Shown piece after piece: positions 19,358 to 30,811 of a DNA stretch of 64,000 nt (the first letter of the stretch is position 1; each line of letters begins with the position of its first letter). Source of the DNA: Promethearchaeota archaeon (GTDB lineage: Archaea > Asgardarchaeota > Hermodarchaeia > Hermodarchaeales > Hermodarchaeaceae); NCBI GenBank assembly GCA_048939625.1, contig JBHLPH010000006.1, forward strand, positions 32,001-96,000, read 5' to 3'. Position numbers and translations under genes: made by a program. The notes beneath the pieces are model-generated. The model ran no database searches. It was not told the DNA's origin and saw only the letters and a list, made by a program, of their open reading frames with translations.

Positions 19358-19600
19358 TCACTTTGGTAATATTGTATACTCAGCATTGCTTGCATAAGTG
19401 CCATCCCAACCAAGGAAGCCCCAGTCAAATCCGTTAAAAGGTTCACTTTCAACAATTCCAGGGATTCCCGGTCCTGGCCCAATGCGGGGTAGAAGCGTTG
19501 GTCGAATTGCGATCGCTACACCCATAGGAACGATAACCATGGCAAAAAGGAAGATAAACCCGATTCCGAGCAAGAGGATTTTCTTTGTTTTCAGTTTCAT
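19358..19600 (-). CDS. Small exported or membrane-anchored protein (80 aa)
   Basis: MKLKTKK plus a hydrophobic segment ending VAIA, then a Pro/Gly-rich spacer and an aromatic tail; AGGAGG RBS; own terminator. Confidence 0.7.
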   Translation of the reverse strand: MKLKTKKILLLGIGFIFLFAMVIVPMGVAIAIRPTLLPRIGPGPGIPGIVESEPFNGFDWGFLGWDGTYASNAEYTILPK

Positions 19601-19793: not shown

Positions 19794-20747
19794 CTAAGTC
19801 TCAAGTAGAGAGTTAAGCTGATTTTGACCCAGTCCCGGAAATTTTCGATGAGGGAACATAACCATGGTGTGAACTACGGTACTATATGGAGACTCCTTGA
19901 GTTCCAGATCAATTGCTTCCACATGATGTAAGGTATCGACGGCAAAATCAAGGAGCAGAGTGGGTTCATCACTTAGAAGATATGAGGTCCAATATTCTAG
20001 CGGGTATCGCTGCTCAAGCCAAGCAACCAACTTTCTGGGACTAGTATTCTCTGCATTATAACGGATACGACTTCGAAACTCGATTTGATTACCAGCGCTG
20101 CGAAGCCATTCAAGTGTAAAACGTAAAGTGCCCGAATTTTGTAATTGGCGAAGCACCATGCGAACACGCTTGGCGCTCATCTCTGTTCTTCGAGCCATAT
20201 CTACGACTGGCATCCGTGGATTTTCTCGCAGACACCTTAATACATTCAATTTAATTTTCGTGAAATCAAAGTTTAAGGCCTGAGGTTTTGAATGCACTTC
20301 TTTTGTGATATGGGGATGCATTTCGATGACATCATGAATTTCGACATCAGACACACGATCAAGACCACGGAGAAATTGTCCAAAGTTCACGGTTCCCATG
20401 TTACCTCGAACTTCCGCTTCCACATCATAGGTGCCATCCGCCAAACGTGAGACTAACCGAACGACCGGACTTTGCCCAATTTGGTGAATGAATTCATGTG
20501 CATCTTCGGATCCGAGGGTTGATACCTCAGCTATGACCAAGTGGGCCCCAAGAGCCTCTGAGTTGAGTTCAACGAGAAACCGCTGAATTACTCCTAACTC
20601 AATCAGCTTTTCAATGCGGCTTCGAATCGTTTTACTCGACACTTCTAATTTTCGTGCTAGTGCTCGAAAGGACTGCCGACAATTGCCTTCTAATTCGGCT
20701 ATAATACCTTTATCAACCAGGTCCACGGGGGTCACCGAACCCTCCAA
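19794..20747 (-). CDS. Tandem-domain Lrp/AsnC transcriptional regulator (HTH-RAM-HTH-RAM), copy 1
   Basis: DLVDKGII..LEGNCRQSFRALARKLEVSSKTIRSRIEKL; second HTH VLRCLRENPRMPVVDMARRTEMSAKRVR. Confidence 0.88.
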   Translation of the reverse strand: MEGSVTPVDLVDKGIIAELEGNCRQSFRALARKLEVSSKTIRSRIEKLIELGVIQRFLVELNSEALGAHLVIAEVSTLGSEDAHEFIHQIGQSPVVRLVSRLADGTYDVEAEVRGNMGTVNFGQFLRGLDRVSDVEIHDVIEMHPHITKEVHSKPQALNFDFTKIKLNVLRCLRENPRMPVVDMARRTEMSAKRVRMVLRQLQNSGTLRFTLEWLRSAGNQIEFRSRIRYNAENTSPRKLVAWLEQRYPLEYWTSYLLSDEPTLLLDFAVDTLHHVEAIDLELKESPYSTVVHTMVMFPHRKFPGLGQNQLNSLLET

Positions 20748-21790: not shown

Positions 21791-22225
21791 CTAATTCGCC
21801 TTCAATTTTGGTGGTTTACATTGAGTGAATAAGGTCTTGCTAGGTTCTTTGTCAAAATAATATGAAGCAACCCAGACACCCTCATCGCTAAAGAGATCTA
21901 GATTAAACCCGATTGTTTGGAGATTTAGAAGATATTGAAACAGCAGAATTGTTTCTTCAAGGGTTAGACGAAGTTCAGGTTGATTGAGTGTGGTCATCTC
22001 ATTGGATGATAAGTTGGCATCTAGCCCCCACATCTTTTCAGGAAGAATCACCTCGATATCCATCCGGATTCGCTCTGGTTCATCTGATTGTCGGACGAGG
22101 AGGATTCGGATTCGATTGGTTTCTTGTACAGTGACAGCCATTTCAGAGATTTGATTAAACACGAGTTCATCTTCATGAATGGAACGCAGTCGCCTGTATT
22201 CTTTAATCAAATCCGAAAACCTCAT
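21791..22225 (-). CDS. Hypothetical protein
   Basis: 144-aa ORF with AGGAG upstream; protein-like composition; no motif recognised. Confidence 0.7.
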   Translation of the reverse strand: MRFSDLIKEYRRLRSIHEDELVFNQISEMAVTVQETNRIRILLVRQSDEPERIRMDIEVILPEKMWGLDANLSSNEMTTLNQPELRLTLEETILLFQYLLNLQTIGFNLDLFSDEGVWVASYYFDKEPSKTLFTQCKPPKLKAN

Positions 22226-22559: not shown

Positions 22560-23069
22560 GTGGTACCGAAAATGAGCTACGATAGAGAGCCTGTTGAGGC
22601 AACAGTCGCAGACCTGCGACCCAGTATGAAAAGTTTGAACATCACCTTCAAAGTCGTCGAAAAAGGCGAAGAACGCGAAGTCACCTCCCGCAAAGACGGG
22701 GAAACCCATCGTGTTCTTGATGCTGTCGCCGGTGACTCCACTGGCACCGTTATTCTTAGTTTGTGGGACGATATGATCGACACCGTCGAACAAGACAAAA
22801 GTTACCGCTTAGAAAACGGTTACACCAGCTTGTTCCAAGGCCACCTCCGATTGAACATCGGACGCTATGGTGAACTAAAAGACACAGACAGTGAAATCGA
22901 AGAAATCGACATGGACAACGATCTCTCCGCTGCCGAACACGAACGCCCCCCACGCCGCTATGGCGGCTATAGTCGGGGTTATAGTGGCGGTGGTGGTGGT
23001 TATCGTCGTGGTGGCGGCGGTTCACGCCGTGGCGGACGAGACCGAGATCGCGGTCGTGGTCGATACTAA
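22560..23069 (+). CDS. ssb: Single-OB-fold SSB with RGG-rich tail (copy 2)
   Basis: OB domain nearly identical to copy 1; tail RRYGGYSRGYSGGGGGYRRGGGGSRRGGRDRDRGRGRY. Confidence 0.9.
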   Translation: MVPKMSYDREPVEATVADLRPSMKSLNITFKVVEKGEEREVTSRKDGETHRVLDAVAGDSTGTVILSLWDDMIDTVEQDKSYRLENGYTSLFQGHLRLNIGRYGELKDTDSEIEEIDMDNDLSAAEHERPPRRYGGYSRGYSGGGGGYRRGGGGSRRGGRDRDRGRGRY

Positions 23070-23082
23070 TCTACGAACACAC

Positions 23083-23134
23083 ACGGAGGCACAGCCACAA
23101 AATATTCTGGCATGACCTCCCGTTTTCTTTTTTT
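23083..23134 (+). terminator. Terminator between ssb copy 2 and the convergent third OB-fold gene
   Basis: GGAGG...GCCA / TGGC...CCTCC imperfect stem followed by TTTTCTTTTTTT. Confidence 0.5.
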
Positions 23135-23167
23135 AAAAAAGCCTGCAAAAATCCTAGGAAAAAGGTG

Positions 23168-23707
23168 TTAGTTCGATTCACGATCAATTCGTGACCATTT
23201 GAAGCCACGAGACCGGCGAACAGGTGGATTGCGACGGTTTGGGATTCGTTTGTTTCCCTTTGAATCTTGTGATGATGAGCGAGACTTTGAGGATAAATTC
23301 CGTTCGGTATTTACTTCAGAGATTGGGTTGACTGCTGGTTCGAGTTTTCCGTTTCGTCCCAGACTGACTTGTAATCGTCCTTGAAATAGACCTGATTGCC
23401 CCCCAATGATCCGAAACGCCTTCCCATCTTCAATTTGGGTAATCTCTTCATCCCATAATGTTAAGAGCATAACACCGGTTTCATCGCCGATAAGCACATC
23501 GGCAACTTGATGGTTGGAGCCATCACTGCGGCTTTTGACCTTCCGGATGGCTTGGGTTTTTAGAACTTGAAATTTAATCGTGATTCCTCGTTGATAGGGC
23601 TGGAGATGGACGAGTTTCTGTGCTTGCTTACTTGACACAACAATGACCTTTCGTGAGGTTGCTGATCTGCGAGTCCAAAAAGCCGCCGTGACCCACAGAT
23701 ACACCAC
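23168..23707 (-). CDS. Divergent SSB-like OB-fold protein with basic tail (copy 3)
   Basis: LQPYQRGITIKFQVL...VADVLIGDETGVMLLTLWDE...GLFQGRLQVSLGRNG; true start probably GTG 23638. Confidence 0.8.
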   Translation of the reverse strand: MVYLWVTAAFWTRRSATSRKVIVVSSKQAQKLVHLQPYQRGITIKFQVLKTQAIRKVKSRSDGSNHQVADVLIGDETGVMLLTLWDEEITQIEDGKAFRIIGGQSGLFQGRLQVSLGRNGKLEPAVNPISEVNTERNLSSKSRSSSQDSKGNKRIPNRRNPPVRRSRGFKWSRIDRESN

Positions 23708-23818
23708 ACGCGAGTAAGTAGCTAAGAGCCGCGAAACTTTCGAATAACAGACCGAAAGACTGATTCTCGAAGCCCCTTAAATATCTACCCCGTTATTCAG
23801 ATGCTGAATCCTTGCTGT

Positions 23819-24655
23819 TCATTCTGAGTCCTTTATTTCCTCACCCGGTGTGATGATCACCTTTTTCTGACGCCGTCGCCAGACAAGGAAACCGCCAACC
23901 ACCAAACATAACCCGATAGCCCACGGGGTGACTAACAAGACCATCGGCAGCTCATCATCATATGGTGGTGGGGGTGGTCCATTATCGGGATTATTGTCAA
24001 CGCGAATGTTGTCAATCCATTGGTGAGAGGTCGTGTAATTGTGCCAGAATGAGATAAAGAAAAATGCGGAGGCACTGAAAGTGTTTTCGTGAACGGGCCA
24101 ATTATCGATAAAGATCTCGTTGGTCGTCCGATTCAGCCAGACATAGAGGTACCCGTCGTAGCGGCGGACGATTTCAACGTGCATCATCTCATAAATCGAT
24201 CGTGAATCATCTCCCAGTGTTGTGTTTTTGTAGCCATCCATGATTCGACGAACATTGTTCTCCATGAGCACGAGTTGATATTCACCCCTTTCTGTTCGCA
24301 AGTAATATCCATTGCTGGGATAATCGAGATTGGCCACATCGAGTGCGATGAAGAAGACCTCCCAACCACCGTGCAAGTACGTGTCCCACGAATAGATGTC
24401 AAAACTCCAGAAACCATAGGCATTGGTACTGGCACGAGATGCGTAATTTTGATAATCACCTGTGGCGTAGAGCCGATCTTGTGGATACCCCTCCGGCACC
24501 ATTGTGAACCCTCCAATGTATACAGTCCAGTCCTCGAGAGTTCCATCGAACTCCTCAATCCATTGGAGAATCGCGATGCGGGAATCAGGGATTGTAAATC
24601 TCACAAAAAGCAATGTAGCTAGAAACAAAACCGGGAAAAGCAGCCTTTTCTTCAC
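23819..24655 (-). CDS. Single-pass cell-surface protein, paralogue 1 (signal peptide, beta-sandwich ectodomain, Pro linker, conserved TM and tail)
   Basis: GTG 24655 with GGAGG upstream; KKRLLF hydrophobic N-terminus; YGFWSFD; WIDNIRVDNNPDNGPPPPP; LLVTPWAIGLC...WRRRQKKVIITPGEE. Confidence 0.85.
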   Translation of the reverse strand: MKKRLLFPVLFLATLLFVRFTIPDSRIAILQWIEEFDGTLEDWTVYIGGFTMVPEGYPQDRLYATGDYQNYASRASTNAYGFWSFDIYSWDTYLHGGWEVFFIALDVANLDYPSNGYYLRTERGEYQLVLMENNVRRIMDGYKNTTLGDDSRSIYEMMHVEIVRRYDGYLYVWLNRTTNEIFIDNWPVHENTFSASAFFFISFWHNYTTSHQWIDNIRVDNNPDNGPPPPPYDDELPMVLLVTPWAIGLCLVVGGFLVWRRRQKKVIITPGEEIKDSE

Positions 24656-24792
24656 GTACAAGCCCTCCAACCTGACAGGAAATATGTTATCGTCTCTTTT
24701 GTGTTGGTTTGATTTAAGTGGCTGTGAGTTATTGGGGTCATAAAAGTGCCGAAAAAAAGTAAAAATCGTCTTATTTGTAACCCTGCCCCGTA

Positions 24793-25776
24793 TTATTCAG
24801 GTAGTTGGAGGGTGTCCCAGAACGCTTCGTTAAGTCCGGGATAGAATCGATGCTGATAATGGATGATTTGTTTGACGGAAACAACCCCGGGAGCCGCTCT
24901 GACGGCTCTGATGAGTTCAGGGGTCTGGCTCATGTATTCAAGCAGAAACAAGGTAAAAATCACCGGCTCTGAGGCACTAGCAAAAGTGTACCAGATTTCC
25001 AAGGGATATCGCTGTTGCAACCACTCCACAAGCGCCCATCTCGCATCCGAGCCCCCCTGATACCCTATACGGACTAAAAACCGAGTATACCCCGTTGCCG
25101 CCACATCTGAATCAATGCGCGCATGAAAACACGCCAGGTTGGACAGCCGATCGCCTACGCCTTTGGCTTTCACCCAAAACTCAGAAGTGGATCCCTCACG
25201 AAGAAGTAACTTATCGAGAATCCGCCGTACCCGTCGAGGGCTAAATCCCGAACGTTGACTGATTTCCTTGATTTGCATCCGCAAATCATGCCTGAGGCAC
25301 GCCAAGACATGCACATCTTCAGGTTTGAGTTCGCATTTTTGGCCCCGTTGAACGACGAGCGTATGAAACTCAACTTCCGATATTTCTGGTTGTTCATGAA
25401 GAAAGTTGGTGAGTTCATCCAAGCCCTTAGACCCCTTATACATTCCCCAACAGAGAAGATCCCCATCAGCAAGAATGGTTATTATGTCAATCATAGGACA
25501 CGCGCCAAGCCGGTTCAGAAGGGCTTCGTTAGTCGTTGAGTCTGTGGTGGTGAGAAACGCCCAGAAGTATTCAGCATCCAGCATGGCCAGCGACGGATAA
25601 ATCGTGAACCGAAGAATCACCTTGTTTTCAAGGAGGCGATCATAGCGTTTTTTCACCGAGGTAACCGACAGATTCAGCCTCCGAGCCAAAGCATGGAACG
25701 AAATCCGACCGTTTTCTATCAATGCCATGACAATATCCTTATCGATTTGGTCCACACATACCACCAAGAAACCCAA
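24793..25776 (-). CDS. Tandem-domain Lrp/AsnC regulator, copy 2
   Basis: DQIDKDIV..LIENGRISFHALARRLNLSVTSVKKRYDRL; second HTH CLRHDLRMQIKEISQRSGFSPRRVRR. Confidence 0.88.
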   Translation of the reverse strand: MGFLVVCVDQIDKDIVMALIENGRISFHALARRLNLSVTSVKKRYDRLLENKVILRFTIYPSLAMLDAEYFWAFLTTTDSTTNEALLNRLGACPMIDIITILADGDLLCWGMYKGSKGLDELTNFLHEQPEISEVEFHTLVVQRGQKCELKPEDVHVLACLRHDLRMQIKEISQRSGFSPRRVRRILDKLLLREGSTSEFWVKAKGVGDRLSNLACFHARIDSDVAATGYTRFLVRIGYQGGSDARWALVEWLQQRYPLEIWYTFASASEPVIFTLFLLEYMSQTPELIRAVRAAPGVVSVKQIIHYQHRFYPGLNEAFWDTLQLPE

Positions 25777-25867
25777 GCATCACTCCTACACGCTAATAGG
25801 GTAAATAGTCAGCGGTGTAATTCTCTTTGAAAGATCAAATAAGACCAAAAAATAGTTCTATAGTCGA

Positions 25868-26737
25868 CTACGCTGACTCCTCGAGTTCCTCTCCAGGCGT
25901 AATCTCCACCTTCTTTTGGCGGCGCCGCCACACCACCAAAGCACCCACGACCACACATAAGCCAATCGCCCAAGGGGTTACCAACAGGACAATTTCAAGA
26001 CCGGACCCACCAATAAGAGGGGGTGGAGGAGGAGGTGGTCCATTTTCGGGATTATTGTCCACTTGAATGTTGTCAATCCATTGAGTATAATTGTGGCGCA
26101 TTCTGATACCAAAATAAGAACAAGTCGTAGGGCAAGGGCCCGGATGAAGGGTTTCGTTGGTTTGGAAGGAAATTCCCGTTTCGGGCTCATCTCCTGTATA
26201 GTTGAGCCACACATACAAATGTCCCTGAGGTGTTCGGACGATGTCTACATGAACCATCTCAATAATGTGAGGCCCATATAAGGGCTCTACAAACCCACCA
26301 TGGTAGGAGATGATACCATTCATGACTTTTTGGAGTTCGTACTTGTGCGGTTTTGCTACATCACCCCCATACCAAGTCTCCTTGTATTCTATTTGGTAGG
26401 AATTGAGTGGATCTCCTGAAGATGCGAAGCCGTCAGCGAGGAAAAAAATAGTATAACGCCTATGGTTATCATTTTTAACATAATATATGTCGAACCGCCA
26501 CCAGCCATAGGCGACGTCACTTTCATGGAAGATGAAACTTTCAAAGCGGTTTGTTGCAGTGAGCCGACCGTTATCAATGGCAAAACCTCCACGTAAGGTT
26601 GTCCAGTTATCGAGAGCATCGTCACCAGTGAAGGTTTCACCCCATCTAGGTGTCGCAGTGCTTGAATCGGGAACTGTAAATGTGACGCAAAGCAATGCCA
26701 TGAACAGCATTGCTGCGAAGCACAGCCTTCTTCTCAT
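25868..26737 (-). CDS. Single-pass cell-surface protein, paralogue 2
   Basis: MRRRL signal peptide; YGWWRFD; WIDNIQVDNNPENGPPPPPPP; LLVTPWAIGLC...WRRRQKKVEITPGEE; GGAGG RBS. Confidence 0.88.
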   Translation of the reverse strand: MRRRLCFAAMLFMALLCVTFTVPDSSTATPRWGETFTGDDALDNWTTLRGGFAIDNGRLTATNRFESFIFHESDVAYGWWRFDIYYVKNDNHRRYTIFFLADGFASSGDPLNSYQIEYKETWYGGDVAKPHKYELQKVMNGIISYHGGFVEPLYGPHIIEMVHVDIVRTPQGHLYVWLNYTGDEPETGISFQTNETLHPGPCPTTCSYFGIRMRHNYTQWIDNIQVDNNPENGPPPPPPPLIGGSGLEIVLLVTPWAIGLCVVVGALVVWRRRQKKVEITPGEELEESA

Positions 26738-26955
26738 TCAGAGACCCTCCAACCTGAGCCATATTGACTAGTATTGTATATATCTGTTCGGATTTCATCG
26801 GCAGCTATGGTAGCTTGTGACCTGAGATATTCGGTACTTCCTGGCATTTAAGCCACGTTCACCGGTTCAGGGCAGAAACAGGACAAACTGCATGGAATTT
26901 AGAATATTTTGTTTCCTAAGGAGGAACCAAAAGAGCCAGGATTGACTTGCACTTG

Positions 26956-26999
26956 AAGAAAATGGGAATACCAGGGACGTGGATGCCGCCCTGGTATTC
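26956..26999 (-). terminator. Hairpin terminator downstream of surface paralogue 3
   Basis: GAATACCAGGG / CCCTGGTATTC perfect 11-bp stem (26966-26999), then CCATTTTCTT on the minus strand. Confidence 0.6.
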
Positions 27000-27106
27000 G
27001 TGTCCTATGCGGATGGAGTGTGTATTTTTGAAAACATTCGACTCGGGTAACTATTCTTCGTGAAGGCTCAGTGTGAGAATCTGGATCGATAATCAACCTG
27101 ATGACA

Positions 27107-27919
27107 TTATTCTTTGAGTTCTTCTCCTGGTGTTATGTCCACTTTCTTTTGGCGGTGTCGCCAAACTACTAATCCTCCTACTACTAAGCATAAACCAATA
27201 GCCCAGGGCGTTACGAGCAGAACTTCCGGCGGAATTTTATTAATTGTTTCAGTGTTTAAAGCGGGGTCAATGGGATCTGGTCCGTTCTCTGGATTGTTAT
27301 CAACGCAAATGTTGTCAATCCATACCTGCTGATGGTGGTCAAGAACGATGTCAAAATAGGCAGAGGTGGTATGACTGACATCATAAGTGTCAAAGAAGAT
27401 ATGGTTCGTTGAGTAATTCGCCCAGACATACATGTACCCATCATATCTTCGAACGATGTCAAAATGCATCATGATATGAATTTGATCGTACAAAGTGCCA
27501 TTACGAAACCCATCCAAGTAATGTGGTTCATAATCCATCGTTTTCATTATTTGATAGAAAAAGGCCCAGCCCTCAAGACAATATCCATTTTGTGGGCGAT
27601 CCCAGAGTATATCCTCAGAAGCAATAAAGAATACGTGCCAGCTCAGATGGTAGTCAGTTCTGATGAAATACACATCGAAGCTCCAATACCCATAGGAGTT
27701 CGTACTCTCATGGCGCATGACGTTTATTTCACGGTTTGTTCCCGAGACTCGGCCGTCCTCAATAACAAATCCGCCTTCAACTATCGTCCAGCCATCTAAG
27801 ACGCCATCATCAAAGTCGTCCGTCCATTGGATGCTCGCGGAGCTTGATAGTGAGAATTTACCGATGCTCAAAAGCAGAAGCAGCATCAGGACTGGAATTA
27901 TTACGAAGCGTTTTCGCAT
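27107..27919 (-). CDS. Single-pass cell-surface protein, paralogue 3
   Basis: MRKRF signal peptide (ATG 27919); WTDDFDDGVLDGW; YGYWSFD; WIDNICVDNNPENGP; LLVTPWAIGLC...WRHRQKKVDITPGEE. Confidence 0.88.
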   Translation of the reverse strand: MRKRFVIIPVLMLLLLLSIGKFSLSSSASIQWTDDFDDGVLDGWTIVEGGFVIEDGRVSGTNREINVMRHESTNSYGYWSFDVYFIRTDYHLSWHVFFIASEDILWDRPQNGYCLEGWAFFYQIMKTMDYEPHYLDGFRNGTLYDQIHIMMHFDIVRRYDGYMYVWANYSTNHIFFDTYDVSHTTSAYFDIVLDHHQQVWIDNICVDNNPENGPDPIDPALNTETINKIPPEVLLVTPWAIGLCLVVGGLVVWRHRQKKVDITPGEELKE

Positions 27920-28057
27920 GACATACACACTCCAGAAGTGGCTTCCAAAAACTGAGGTCACTCCACTAAGGAGAAGTGTGTCTTCGTGGCATATTAACCC
28001 GTGTTTGGTGATCGGTTTACAAAGTGAACGCTACTTATAAGGCGCTTGGACGGTTTG

Positions 28058-29020
28058 TCAACCGAGGAGGTGTTGCCAGAACCGTTCGTTTAATCCTGGG
28101 TAGTAATGGTGGGCAAAATAGACGATGGGTCGAACGGATACCACATCTTCGAGTTCTTTGATTCGTTTGATGATTTCAGGTGAATAATTGGCGATGTCGA
28201 CAAGGAACATCGAAAAGAGGACTGGCGCCGAAGCACTGGCGTGGGTAAACCAGTATTCCATGGGATATGTTCGTTTTAGAAGGGCGACGATGGATCGGCG
28301 TGTTTCATCGCCACCCTGAAACTCGGTGCGGGCATAGAATCGGGTTGCCCCACCTTCGGCGACGTCACCATCGGTGCGGGTATGAAAACATTGTTGGGCG
28401 GTCCGATAGTCGCCAACGCCGTTTTCGTGGAACATTTGTTCGTCAGCAGAACCTTCGGTGCCAATTAATTCGGTGAGCAGTTTTCGGACCCGTCGTTGGG
28501 TCATCCCAGTGTTTTGGGCAATGTCTTTGATGGGCATGCGCACGTTTTCGCGCAGGCAGCGAAGGACTTGGAGTTGCATGGATGTGAGGGGGCAGCGCTT
28601 TCCTCTTTCGATTAAAATCGTATGAAATTCAACCTCACGGATATCGTCGAGCTCATGGAGGAACAAGGTGAGTTCGTCGAGTTCTTTGGGTCCGACGTAT
28701 TTTCCCCAGACCATCACGTTGCCATCTGCTAGCAGATTGACATTGTTGATCATGGGGTAGGCACCCAGGAAATCGCGGAAGGTTTCGCTGGGTGGATGAT
28801 GTTTCAATGTTAGGATAGCTGTGAAGAAGGAGGCGTCAAGCATGGCGTAGCTGGGGATGATGAAATAGCGGCGAATGACCTTCGCTTTTTCCATCTTGAG
28901 AATCCGGTTACGCACAGCTGTAACAGAGAGCCCCAGTTTTCGCCCGATAGCCCGGTAAGAAATCCGTGCGTCCTCTAATAATGTGTAAAGAATCTGTTTG
29001 TCAATTAGGTCCACGGGCAT
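28058..29020 (-). CDS. Tandem-domain Lrp/AsnC regulator, copy 3
   Basis: DLIDKQIL..LLEDARISYRAIGRKLGLSVTAVRNRI; second HTH CLRENVRMPIKDIAQNTGMTQRRVRK; GGAGGT before ATG 29020. Confidence 0.88.
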   Translation of the reverse strand: MPVDLIDKQILYTLLEDARISYRAIGRKLGLSVTAVRNRILKMEKAKVIRRYFIIPSYAMLDASFFTAILTLKHHPPSETFRDFLGAYPMINNVNLLADGNVMVWGKYVGPKELDELTLFLHELDDIREVEFHTILIERGKRCPLTSMQLQVLRCLRENVRMPIKDIAQNTGMTQRRVRKLLTELIGTEGSADEQMFHENGVGDYRTAQQCFHTRTDGDVAEGGATRFYARTEFQGGDETRRSIVALLKRTYPMEYWFTHASASAPVLFSMFLVDIANYSPEIIKRIKELEDVVSVRPIVYFAHHYYPGLNERFWQHLLG

Positions 29021-29155
29021 CCTTTGACCTCCCAAGCGCTACACTCTTTCACCTTATAGCGTAAATATGCAACCCTTCTCACCATTCAATAGGCTTTAGT
29101 GAATGACCCAGGCAAACGGAGAGAAAAACGTGTTGATGAGCCTCAAAGGTCTTAG

Positions 29156-29950
29156 TTATTTGGTGCCAATGGCAAAGACAATGGAGGCGTTAGCTATACC
29201 GGTTTCTTTTACTCGAACCTTCAACGCCTCTGCCTCTGTTAGGAGTTCAGGGGTTCGTTTGTGGGGCTCTAGGGACTGCAAGGTTTTGTCAACTCCCTTA
29301 ATGAAAGACGCAATCATTGATGCGGATTTGGGGTTTTCACAGCCAAACCGGTCTTCACAGAACAAGCACTTCACATACCGTGAGGAATCTAGCAAAACAA
29401 GATCAGTGAAATGGAGGGCTTCCAGCTCAGCGACTATGGATCGTCGAAATAGGGTCTCGTGATGAGTAAGTCCTTTTAGCCGATCGATTTTGGCGGTCCA
29501 ATGGTGCTCCAGAATATCAGTGTGTTGGGCTTCGCTCTGCGCGCCATCCTGATACATTTCCGAGACAATGAAATGTCCACCAGGCGTTAAGACCCGCTTA
29601 ATCTCCGCCAATACAGCGGGGACATTTTCCAGATGGTGTAACGAATTCGCAATCGACACCGTGTCAAAGAATTCATCTTCAAAGTCCAGTTGTGTGGCAT
29701 TCATTTCCAAAAAGCTAATTGTTTGATTTTGGAACCTTTTTCTGGCGTGAGCTAAGTCGTCTTGGTCTATATCAACGCCGACAAAGCTGTCGTAAGTCTT
29801 CAATGTCTTCATGAGTGTCTCAATGAAATTGCCTTTTCCAGTAGCCACATCCAAGACGGTTCCTCCCGTAATTGTCTTTAGATGGTCGGCAATTTCTCTA
29901 GCGCCCGAGGTTTCCAAGCCAGGTAATTCCGCCATGGTTAATTTCTGCAC
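29156..29950 (-). CDS. Class I SAM-dependent methyltransferase
   Basis: VLDVATGKG, GVDID, FEDEFFDTV...SLHH, RVLTPGG. Confidence 0.88.
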   Translation of the reverse strand: MQKLTMAELPGLETSGAREIADHLKTITGGTVLDVATGKGNFIETLMKTLKTYDSFVGVDIDQDDLAHARKRFQNQTISFLEMNATQLDFEDEFFDTVSIANSLHHLENVPAVLAEIKRVLTPGGHFIVSEMYQDGAQSEAQHTDILEHHWTAKIDRLKGLTHHETLFRRSIVAELEALHFTDLVLLDSSRYVKCLFCEDRFGCENPKSASMIASFIKGVDKTLQSLEPHKRTPELLTEAEALKVRVKETGIANASIVFAIGTK

Positions 29951-29968
29951 CTACTTAGCTTTGAATGT

Positions 29969-30811
29969 TCAGGATTTGAACTGAATGTGGACAAAGGATA
30001 CCACCTTTAACCAGTCACTGAATCGCATCAGCATTCGAGTTTTAAATTTCCACTTCGGATTCTTGGAGATTTGACTAAACATGGGAAACCAGTCAATTAC
30101 TTGAAGACGCGAGGACCACCTAGGGATTTCTTTCCAGGCATTCCCAAGCCCGAAATGCAGTTCAACCCCTTCGATGCCAAATGACCGAAACCGCCGTTTC
30201 AAGAGTCGAAGCCCGAACCGTGATGGCATGTCGAAGAGGAGTTCCCCTTCCGGTAGTTGTGTAGCCATGGTATCAAGAAGTGTGGCTACTTCTGATTCGG
30301 GGAAATAGTGAAAGAATCCACCTGCGAAGCAGAAAACCCCCTTTTCAGGAGACACTAAAATTTCTTTCAGCCAAGAGGGGGTGAAGGCGGATGTTCCTAA
30401 GTACCGATTGCGATCAGTTTGGGGGACTAACTTTTGACGATAAGCGATGGCGTCAGGTAAATCCAAATCATACCAAAGAAGCCGCCCATTATCTACTCGT
30501 GAAAAGGTCGTGTCCAACCCACACCCAATGTTTACGATTGTAGCGTCAGGATGTGAGCTGAGAAACGCTCTTATGGCATCATCAAAGATGCGAGCACGGA
30601 TCAAAAAATTTAGCCCGTAAAATTCATCGATGAACGCTTCCATGGCTGCAAACTCAGCTTCTGACTCCGGATGCATGGCTCGTACTTGCTCTATTAATTG
30701 GACTGATTGCTCATCTATCAAAAGCTCTGGATAAAGGCGACTATACATGGCTCTCGCCCACAACGGGCCCACCATCGTCGATTCGAGGGTTACAGCAATG
30801 GAATCAGACAT
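29969..30811 (-). CDS. SAM-dependent O-methyltransferase, leucine-carboxyl-methyltransferase/TcmP-like
   Basis: PLWARA, RARIFDD, VNIGCGLDTTFSRVDNG, WYDLDLPD. Confidence 0.88.
   Translation of the reverse strand: MSDSIAVTLESTMVGPLWARAMYSRLYPELLIDEQSVQLIEQVRAMHPESEAEFAAMEAFIDEFYGLNFLIRARIFDDAIRAFLSSHPDATIVNIGCGLDTTFSRVDNGRLLWYDLDLPDAIAYRQKLVPQTDRNRYLGTSAFTPSWLKEILVSPEKGVFCFAGGFFHYFPESEVATLLDTMATQLPEGELLFDMPSRFGLRLLKRRFRSFGIEGVELHFGLGNAWKEIPRWSSRLQVIDWFPMFSQISKNPKWKFKTRMLMRFSDWLKVVSFVHIQFKS

Follow-up and report, generated by a model that had tools for sequence, protein, structure and literature searches.

A 64,000-nucleotide stretch of the genome of a Promethearchaeota archaeon of the family Hermodarchaeaceae (assembly GCA_048939625.1, contig JBHLPH010000006.1, positions 32,001 to 96,000 of the forward strand; hereafter the window) carries three paralogous genes, here called A, B and C, for single-pass membrane proteins with divergent ectodomains and a nearly constant transmembrane (TM) helix and cytoplasmic tail. 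Our analysis confirmed that this pattern is real and well above chance. We favor the view, with a probability of about 0.5 and judging from sequence comparison, that the diversified lectin-like paralogues have in common a specific module for assembly or docking, made up of TM helix and tail. The open reading frames (ORFs) of the three genes were found on the minus strand where the initial annotation of the window had placed them (Table 1). The genome to which they belong (G000) is a 2.3-Mb metagenome-assembled genome (MAG) of 83 contigs and 87.6% completeness.

A, B and C have the topology of a type-I membrane protein with a signal peptide, a ConA-like beta-sandwich of about 200 residues, a Pro linker, one TM helix and a cytoplasmic tail of 15-19 residues. 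Their pairwise identity in the protein alignment was 46-51% overall, while the last ~38 residues, VLLVTPWAIGLC.VVG..VWR.RQKKV.ITPGEE, were nearly invariant; a peptide of the cytoplasmic tail reads WRRRQKKVDITPGEELKE. In the tail alignment 29 of 45 columns were invariant, in line with the initial description of this segment as almost identical in all three. The same annotation had credited the ectodomains with scattered common motifs only. All the motifs it quoted are present, yet the ectodomain identity of 46-51% is higher than this wording implies.

The tail-coding DNA of A, B and C differed at nearly every third codon position. Nei-Gojobori counting gave proportions of synonymous differences (pS) of 0.72-0.93 for the tail and 0.70-0.80 for the ectodomain, i.e. 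synonymous sites were saturated in both. The proportion of nonsynonymous differences (pN) was three- to sixfold lower in the tail, at 0.07-0.15, than in the ectodomain, at 0.37-0.44. This region-wise comparison, which the initial annotation had suggested for separating selection from gene conversion, came out in favor of selection, purifying selection on the tail being much stronger than that on the ectodomain. Because the synonymous sites of the tail are saturated, neither gene conversion nor recent duplication can explain its identity.

The conservation of the tail persisted in a wider alignment, as was to be checked according to the initial annotation. A word-indexed search of 5.8 billion proteins yielded ten members with the tail, those of the window included, and a profile search of 1.84 billion representatives gave only four clusters at E<1e-30. 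The distinct tails amounted to 13 when two genes of the congeneric genome G003 were counted. The genomes searched here and below are incomplete MAGs or species representatives, where 'not found' does not equal absent. The tail was retained in 13 of the 13 known members at ectodomain identities of 38-60%, and LLVTPW, GL, VVG, W, R, KK and PG were invariant across all of them. Other positions varied. The Cys of the TM helix, initially considered as a lipidation or dimer site, is replaced by Thr in P0003, and the Thr of TPG, considered as a phosphosite, by Ser in two members and by Lys in one, which weakens both proposals. The EE of the tail is EK or KK in four members. An N-x-S/T sequon within WLN(Y/R)(T/S) is kept in all members of the tail clade and fits an external, possibly N-glycosylated domain. 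A search for related loci in genome contigs and metagenome contigs found no relatives. A degenerate DNA pattern for the peptide LLVTPW(A/V)(I/V)GL produced 12 chance matches in metagenome contigs, which belonged to unrelated polytopic proteins.

At E<=0.001 the profile search of the 1.84 billion representatives returned 377 relatives of the family, mostly of 230-290 residues. Of the 18 further genomes that GTDB assigns to the same family, 16 contained members, often in several copies, and sister proteins are common in Hermodarchaeota. The C-termini of the sisters are of two kinds, either IPGFP-type signals or a plain TM helix followed by basic residues. The IPGFP-type ends match the NCBIfam model Loki-CTERM (E 8.8e-5 to 0.047) and once Heimdall-CTERM, in each case around the cut-off. 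What persists in them is limited to the IPGFP motif and the basic cluster, whereas the tail clade keeps the whole TM helix and the invariant PG; some of the Loki-CTERM tails carry up to 8 extra residues that are not conserved.

For the tree of the family, which included 12 tail proteins, the last 45 residues were removed so that it reflects the ectodomain alone. These 12 formed one clade with a support of 100 in the SH-like approximate likelihood-ratio test (SH-aLRT) and a long stem of 1.06. Thus the tail clade has a single origin. It splits into an A-type lineage of A and P0010, a B-type lineage that takes in P0003 and a 281-residue gene of G003, and a C-type lineage that unites C with P0005, P0007, P0008 and a gene fragment of G003. 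Outside this clade the tree shows about ten changes between PGF-type and plain anchors, of which well-supported branches force only two.

G000 has two further relatives without the tail, designated C22, with a PGF-type end, and C75, which ends in LPWFIIP…ILWFRKQKKGGL. C75 (L004:1420-2223) as well as P0052, P0053, P0071, P0107 and P0125 show a loose anchor pattern in which P-x-W marks the outer membrane edge, and a W with basic residues after it the inner one. Such a sister anchor may represent the ancestral form of the conserved tail.

As a control, anchors were compared at ectodomain identities of 38-62%. Anchors of the tail subfamily were 75% identical (range 65-90, 40 pairs) and same-type anchors of sister proteins 39% (range 10-80, 232 pairs), the pairs not being independent of each other. 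We prefer specific contacts of the module as an explanation because of the strength and extent of the selection, the single origin, the retention in three co-located lineages and the free evolution of the sister anchors.

The fold of the ectodomain was predicted by an AlphaFold2 model of B, which was based on a 60-sequence alignment and had a mean predicted local distance difference test score of 85.2. The model comprises a helix at residues 2-21 (signal peptide), strands at 32-227 (beta-sandwich), a Pro linker of low confidence and a helix at 247-274. Hydropathy showed the same two hydrophobic segments, N- and C-terminal, and basic residues after the TM helix. With Foldseek the model matched ConA-like lectins, carbohydrate-binding modules (CBMs) and GH16 enzymes at a probability of 1.00 and with E values down to 1.5e-7 for the top match Emp47p. 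VIA-align gave Z scores of 14-16.7 over ~160-190 aligned residues with many ConA-like structures: 16.7 for phage Dit CBM2 and YesU, 16.5 for Emp47p, 15.8 for CBM66 and ERGIC-53 and ~14 (14.1) for DUF1080 structures. No single structural neighbor stands out, Emp47p and ERGIC-53 being within 1 Z of Dit CBM2, YesU, CBM66 and GH16.

Furthermore, a profile of 60 family members matched CBM66 of the Bacillus subtilis levanase (4b1l, 4azz, 4b1m) with E=1e-7. A, B and C themselves have no Pfam match at threshold; among the 60 relatives there were weak matches to PF06439 (3keto-disac_hyd; 7/60) and PF13385 (Laminin_G_3; 6/60), and the ESM Atlas neighbors carry PF06439. Taken together, the model, both structural comparisons and the CBM66 match bear out the initial prediction of a ConA/LamG-like ectodomain. 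Fold and profile homology to CBM66 connect it with the CBM66/Laminin_G_3/DUF1080 (3keto-disac_hyd) branch of the ConA-like superfamily. Unlike the members of that branch, the domain of A, B and C is free-standing on a single-pass membrane protein and not a module of a glycoside hydrolase. The ectodomain probably binds glycans.

In the mechanism that we propose A, B and C are type-I surface proteins of a Hermodarchaeota archaeon that are exported via Sec, and each carries on its Pro-rich stalk a beta-sandwich of CBM66/ConA-like type that probably binds glycans. The ectodomain of most relatives is anchored by a Loki-CTERM/PGF-type signal or an ordinary TM helix. A single clade exchanged this anchor, in one event, for a specific TM helix (LLVTPWAIGLCLVVGG..VW) and the juxtamembrane tail RRRQKKV.ITPGEE. 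It has since split into three old tandem paralogue lineages, which kept the module almost unchanged as their ectodomains diverged. Helix and tail would make sequence-specific protein contacts, either by self- or hetero-association of the paralogues in the membrane, by docking of a common membrane or cytoplasmic partner, or by both. Different binding domains would thus share one assembly or output module, and the ectodomains would meanwhile diversify in ligand specificity. A signalling or partner-binding function of the tail, the former of which the initial annotation had offered as one of two options, is plausible.

Some of our data weigh against a contact-forming module. No partner of helix and tail was identified in the analysis. 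The variable positions of the TM helix displayed no significant one-face pattern (permutation p 0.44-0.70), and therefore a defined packing face is not supported. The module is very rare, being present in 2 of 400 genomes of the Asgard phylum in a search with a hidden Markov model (HMM) of the tail, and given this rarity other lineage-specific constraints are possible causes of the conservation. Finally, the double-Lrp regulators encoded next to A, B and C are not confined to the tail subfamily. In other genomes, sister surface proteins without the tail are preceded by orthologues of one of them, reg2 (66-70% identity), and because the regulators thus accompany differently anchored sisters as well they are not an obvious partner of the tail.

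Could the module be a passive membrane anchor that is held constant by generic biophysical demands such as stop-transfer efficiency, helix length and lipid matching in a young, slowly sampled clade? We consider this unlikely. The sister anchors reside in the same membranes and yet diverge freely (~39% identity) and switch type about ten times. In addition, the synonymous sites within the clade are saturated, therefore the clade is not young, and the cytoplasmic I(T/S)PGE motif does not serve as an anchor. The loosely similar pattern in other members of the family, e.g. in C75 of G000, and the fact that no partner is known would agree with a passive anchor.

The other option of the initial annotation was a new C-terminal sorting or processing signal. 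Like PGF-CTERM or Loki-CTERM, the module would then be cleaved by a membrane enzyme (archaeosortase-like, rhomboid-like or other), and the protein would perhaps be joined to a lipid or to the envelope. The module indeed occupies the same C-terminal place on the same ectodomain family as the Loki-CTERM/PGF-type signals of the sisters, and the layout is similar with a Pro and aromatic motif (TPW vs PGF), ~16-19 hydrophobic residues and an Arg/Lys cluster. The tripartite arrangement of the TPW motif, a helix of ~16 residues and RRRQKK is followed, however, by 12-17 further residues with the invariant PG. Compared to Loki-CTERM (NF033507), Heimdall-CTERM (NF045529) and PGF-CTERM the module also differs by having TPW instead of PGF, by the conservation of the whole helix, by its confinement to a single protein clade and by the absence of a dedicated sortase alongside. 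Every residue of the TM helix and the PG 8 residues past the basic cluster are conserved; sorting signals need neither. The NCBIfam CTERM models did not match A, B or C at E<=0.1, and at E<=1 only PVV-CTERM (0.13) and LPXTG (0.34) appeared. The tail thus matches no described CTERM family, an outcome that would have spoken against the initial proposal had it been otherwise.

The distribution of the tail argues against a sorting signal, too. Among 19 genomes of the family and 400 of the phylum the tail-only HMM recognized only the three genes of G000 and two genes of G003. It gave three weak further matches in G355, G278 and G061; those in G355 and G278 were read and turned out to be generic segments of a TM helix plus RRR. 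An exact and a loose motif scan of the own genome located the tail on the three paralogues only. All of the 150 best matches of the profile search align with the ectodomain. The tail alone scores 85-110 bits and the lowest of these matches 51.6 bits, therefore a tail on a foreign ectodomain should have shown among the 150. Tail-only word searches of the 5.8 billion proteins, at near and longer lengths, returned the same subfamily or nothing. Hence a foreign ectodomain with the tail was found neither in the own genome, the 19 family genomes and the 400 phylum genomes nor in the protein collections and metagenome contigs.

Candidate enzymes are present. G000 encodes an archaeosortase-family protein of 234 residues (C44:521-1225, L072; TIGR04178, E=1.4e-7, and a weak heimosortase match) as well as a rhomboid. 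Homologues of the 234-residue type occur in 19 of 19 family genomes, a second archaeosortase type of ~289 residues in most of them, G003 included, and a rhomboid again in all 19, whether tail-bearing or not. Neither an archaeosortase nor a rhomboid was specific to G000 and G003 within this set, so that co-occurrence with these enzymes does not discriminate. As the tail is found on one clade only and has no dedicated enzyme, a generic sorting signal with a dedicated enzyme is not supported. Processing of the tail by a ubiquitous enzyme is possible; on the whole we regard a sorting signal as improbable. The ~289-residue archaeosortase type was not found in G000 (87.6% complete), though this genome encodes the PGF-type C22.

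At the same locus G003 has two tail genes in tandem, the 281-residue gene and, at the contig end, a fragment that matches C with 94% identity over 35 residues. A longest contig of 12483 bases is listed for both the B-type P0003 and the C-type P0005, and the two may lie on one contig. The first of the two tail genes of G003, X1 (L046:15579-16424), was compared with window positions 23819-26910. Its upstream sequence and 5' region are B-like, including a signal peptide with 84% identity over the first 30 alignment columns, and its 3' end and downstream flank are A-like. G003 is without reg1. The mosaic of X1 and the absent reg1 indicate unequal recombination between paralogues and are consistent with a crossover between tandem copies in G003. 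Tandem position and recombination of this kind speak for recent gene conversion or duplication as the source of the tail identity, but that explanation is refuted by the synonymous sites of the tail, almost all of which differ between A, B and C (pS 0.78-0.93). It would require paralogues whose tail DNA is nearly identical, and these were not seen; moreover, the same tail exists in orthologues from other genomes and samples.

A separate observation concerns the 3' end of C. Together with ~150 nucleotides downstream (window 26956-27216 vs L046:16783-17043) it is 96% identical between G000 and G003, and the syntenic flanks are only ~82-84% identical. The stretch contains the hairpin CCAGGGCGGCATCCACGTCCCTGG and stops at the contig end of G003. 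It had no Rfam match, and no further copy was found in 19 genomes. An assembly chimera, a conserved 3' element or recent exchange could account for it.

The architecture of A, B and C recalls the L-type lectin cargo receptors ERGIC-53, Emp46/47p and VIP36, which have type-I topology, a ConA-like lumenal or external lectin domain, a single TM helix and a short conserved cytosolic tail with a di-lysine. Yet no match to Lectin_leg-like (PF03388) was obtained with A, B, C and 60 relatives. The KK is located 10-15 residues from a variable extreme C-terminus that lacks a KKxx or FF coat-binding motif, and the structural scores are tied with those of many unrelated ConA-like folds. We take the likeness as an analogy of architecture only.

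Syndecan-type proteins combine a variable ectodomain with a conserved, self-associating TM helix and a short cytoplasmic domain. They show the same pattern across paralogues as A, B and C, diverging ectodomains vs near-invariant TM helix and tail. The likeness is one of conservation pattern alone: syndecans are from another domain of life and have no relationship in sequence or fold, and there is no evidence in A, B and C for dimerisation or for cytoskeletal or PDZ partners. In the literature we found no paper on the tail or on Asgard ERGIC-53-like receptors. It is a long shot that the TM helix and the ITPGE tail serve for docking in a so far undescribed membrane system of Asgard archaea, in which diversified type-I lectin receptors would pass information or cargo to a common cytoplasmic or membrane partner.

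In the window A, B and C are interleaved with the regulator genes reg1 and reg2 (Table 1). No Rfam family was detected at positions 23000-29500, where an explanation at the nucleotide level was looked for.

Table 1. Genes and gene parts of the surface protein cluster and the related regulators, in window coordinates
Feature	Position	Strand	Basis or content
Paralogue A	ORF 23819-24670, likely GTG start 24655 (278 residues)	-	upstream CAGGTTGGAGGG string and translation
Paralogue A, parts	23819-24655	-	signal peptide, ConA-like ectodomain, PPPPP linker, TM helix, cytoplasmic tail
A, part coding for conserved TM helix and tail	23819..23941	-	encodes VLLVTPWAIGLCLVVGGFLVWRRRQKKVIITPGEEIKDSE
Paralogue B	25868-26737, likely ATG start 26737 (289 residues)	-	ORF and protein alignment; protein used for modelling
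B, part coding for conserved TM helix and tail	25868..25990	-	translation
Paralogue C	ORF 27107-27961, likely ATG start 27919 (270 residues)	-	ORF, alignment, translation
C, part coding for conserved TM helix and tail	27107..27223	-	translation
reg1, 327-residue regulator directly upstream of A	24793..25776	-	two AsnC-type winged helix-turn-helix modules; Pfam HTH_AsnC-type and HTH_24, two stretches each
reg2, 325-residue regulator with double AsnC-type winged helix-turn-helix, upstream of C and B	28058..29035	-	Pfam
reg0, third regulator paralogue	19794-20747

The CAGGTTGGAGGG string stands immediately 5' of the start codon in A, B and X1 of G003 (window 24656-24680 and 26738-26760) and resembles a Shine-Dalgarno element. 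The cluster is adjoined by two convergent genes for single-OB SSB-like proteins (Pfam Ssb-like_OB) at 22560-23069 on the plus and 23168-23707 on the minus strand, one with a Gly/Arg-rich and the other with a Ser/Arg-rich tail. SSB1 and its G003 orthologue share 96% identity. Directly upstream of reg2 two methyltransferase genes (Methyltransf_11 and LCM-like PF04072) are located at 29156-30811; they are kept at the locus in congeners without tail proteins. The segment between SSB2 and the methyltransferase genes varies among congeners.

A recurrent gene order was observed in the Hermodarchaeota loci L008, L016, L021, L022 and L050, whatever the anchor of the surface protein. It consists of a double-AsnC/Lrp regulator, a ConA-like surface protein and a homologue of the 144-residue ORF that lies at 21791-22225 in the window. 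In the window reg0 is instead followed by an 80-residue exported or membrane ORF (19358-19600).

Archaeal single-pass surface proteins are usually regarded either as passively anchored or as carrying archaeosortase-type signals. Anchored ConA-like surface proteins of Asgard archaea were already known, and what is new is the conserved TM-tail module on them. Its narrow distribution, two species of one genus and a few metagenome contigs, limits its general importance. One ectodomain family with three kinds of anchor, a Loki-CTERM/PGF-type signal, a plain TM helix and a selected TM-tail module, amounts to a clean comparison set up by nature, and to a concrete case in which a sequence-specific TM and cytoplasmic module of an Asgard archaeon can be tested. 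If the docking system were true, it would have an architecture that is otherwise typical of eukaryotic receptors such as ERGIC-53 and syndecans. If a partner exists, the module would be a rare instance of receptor-like transmembrane coupling in the prokaryotes most closely related to eukaryotes.

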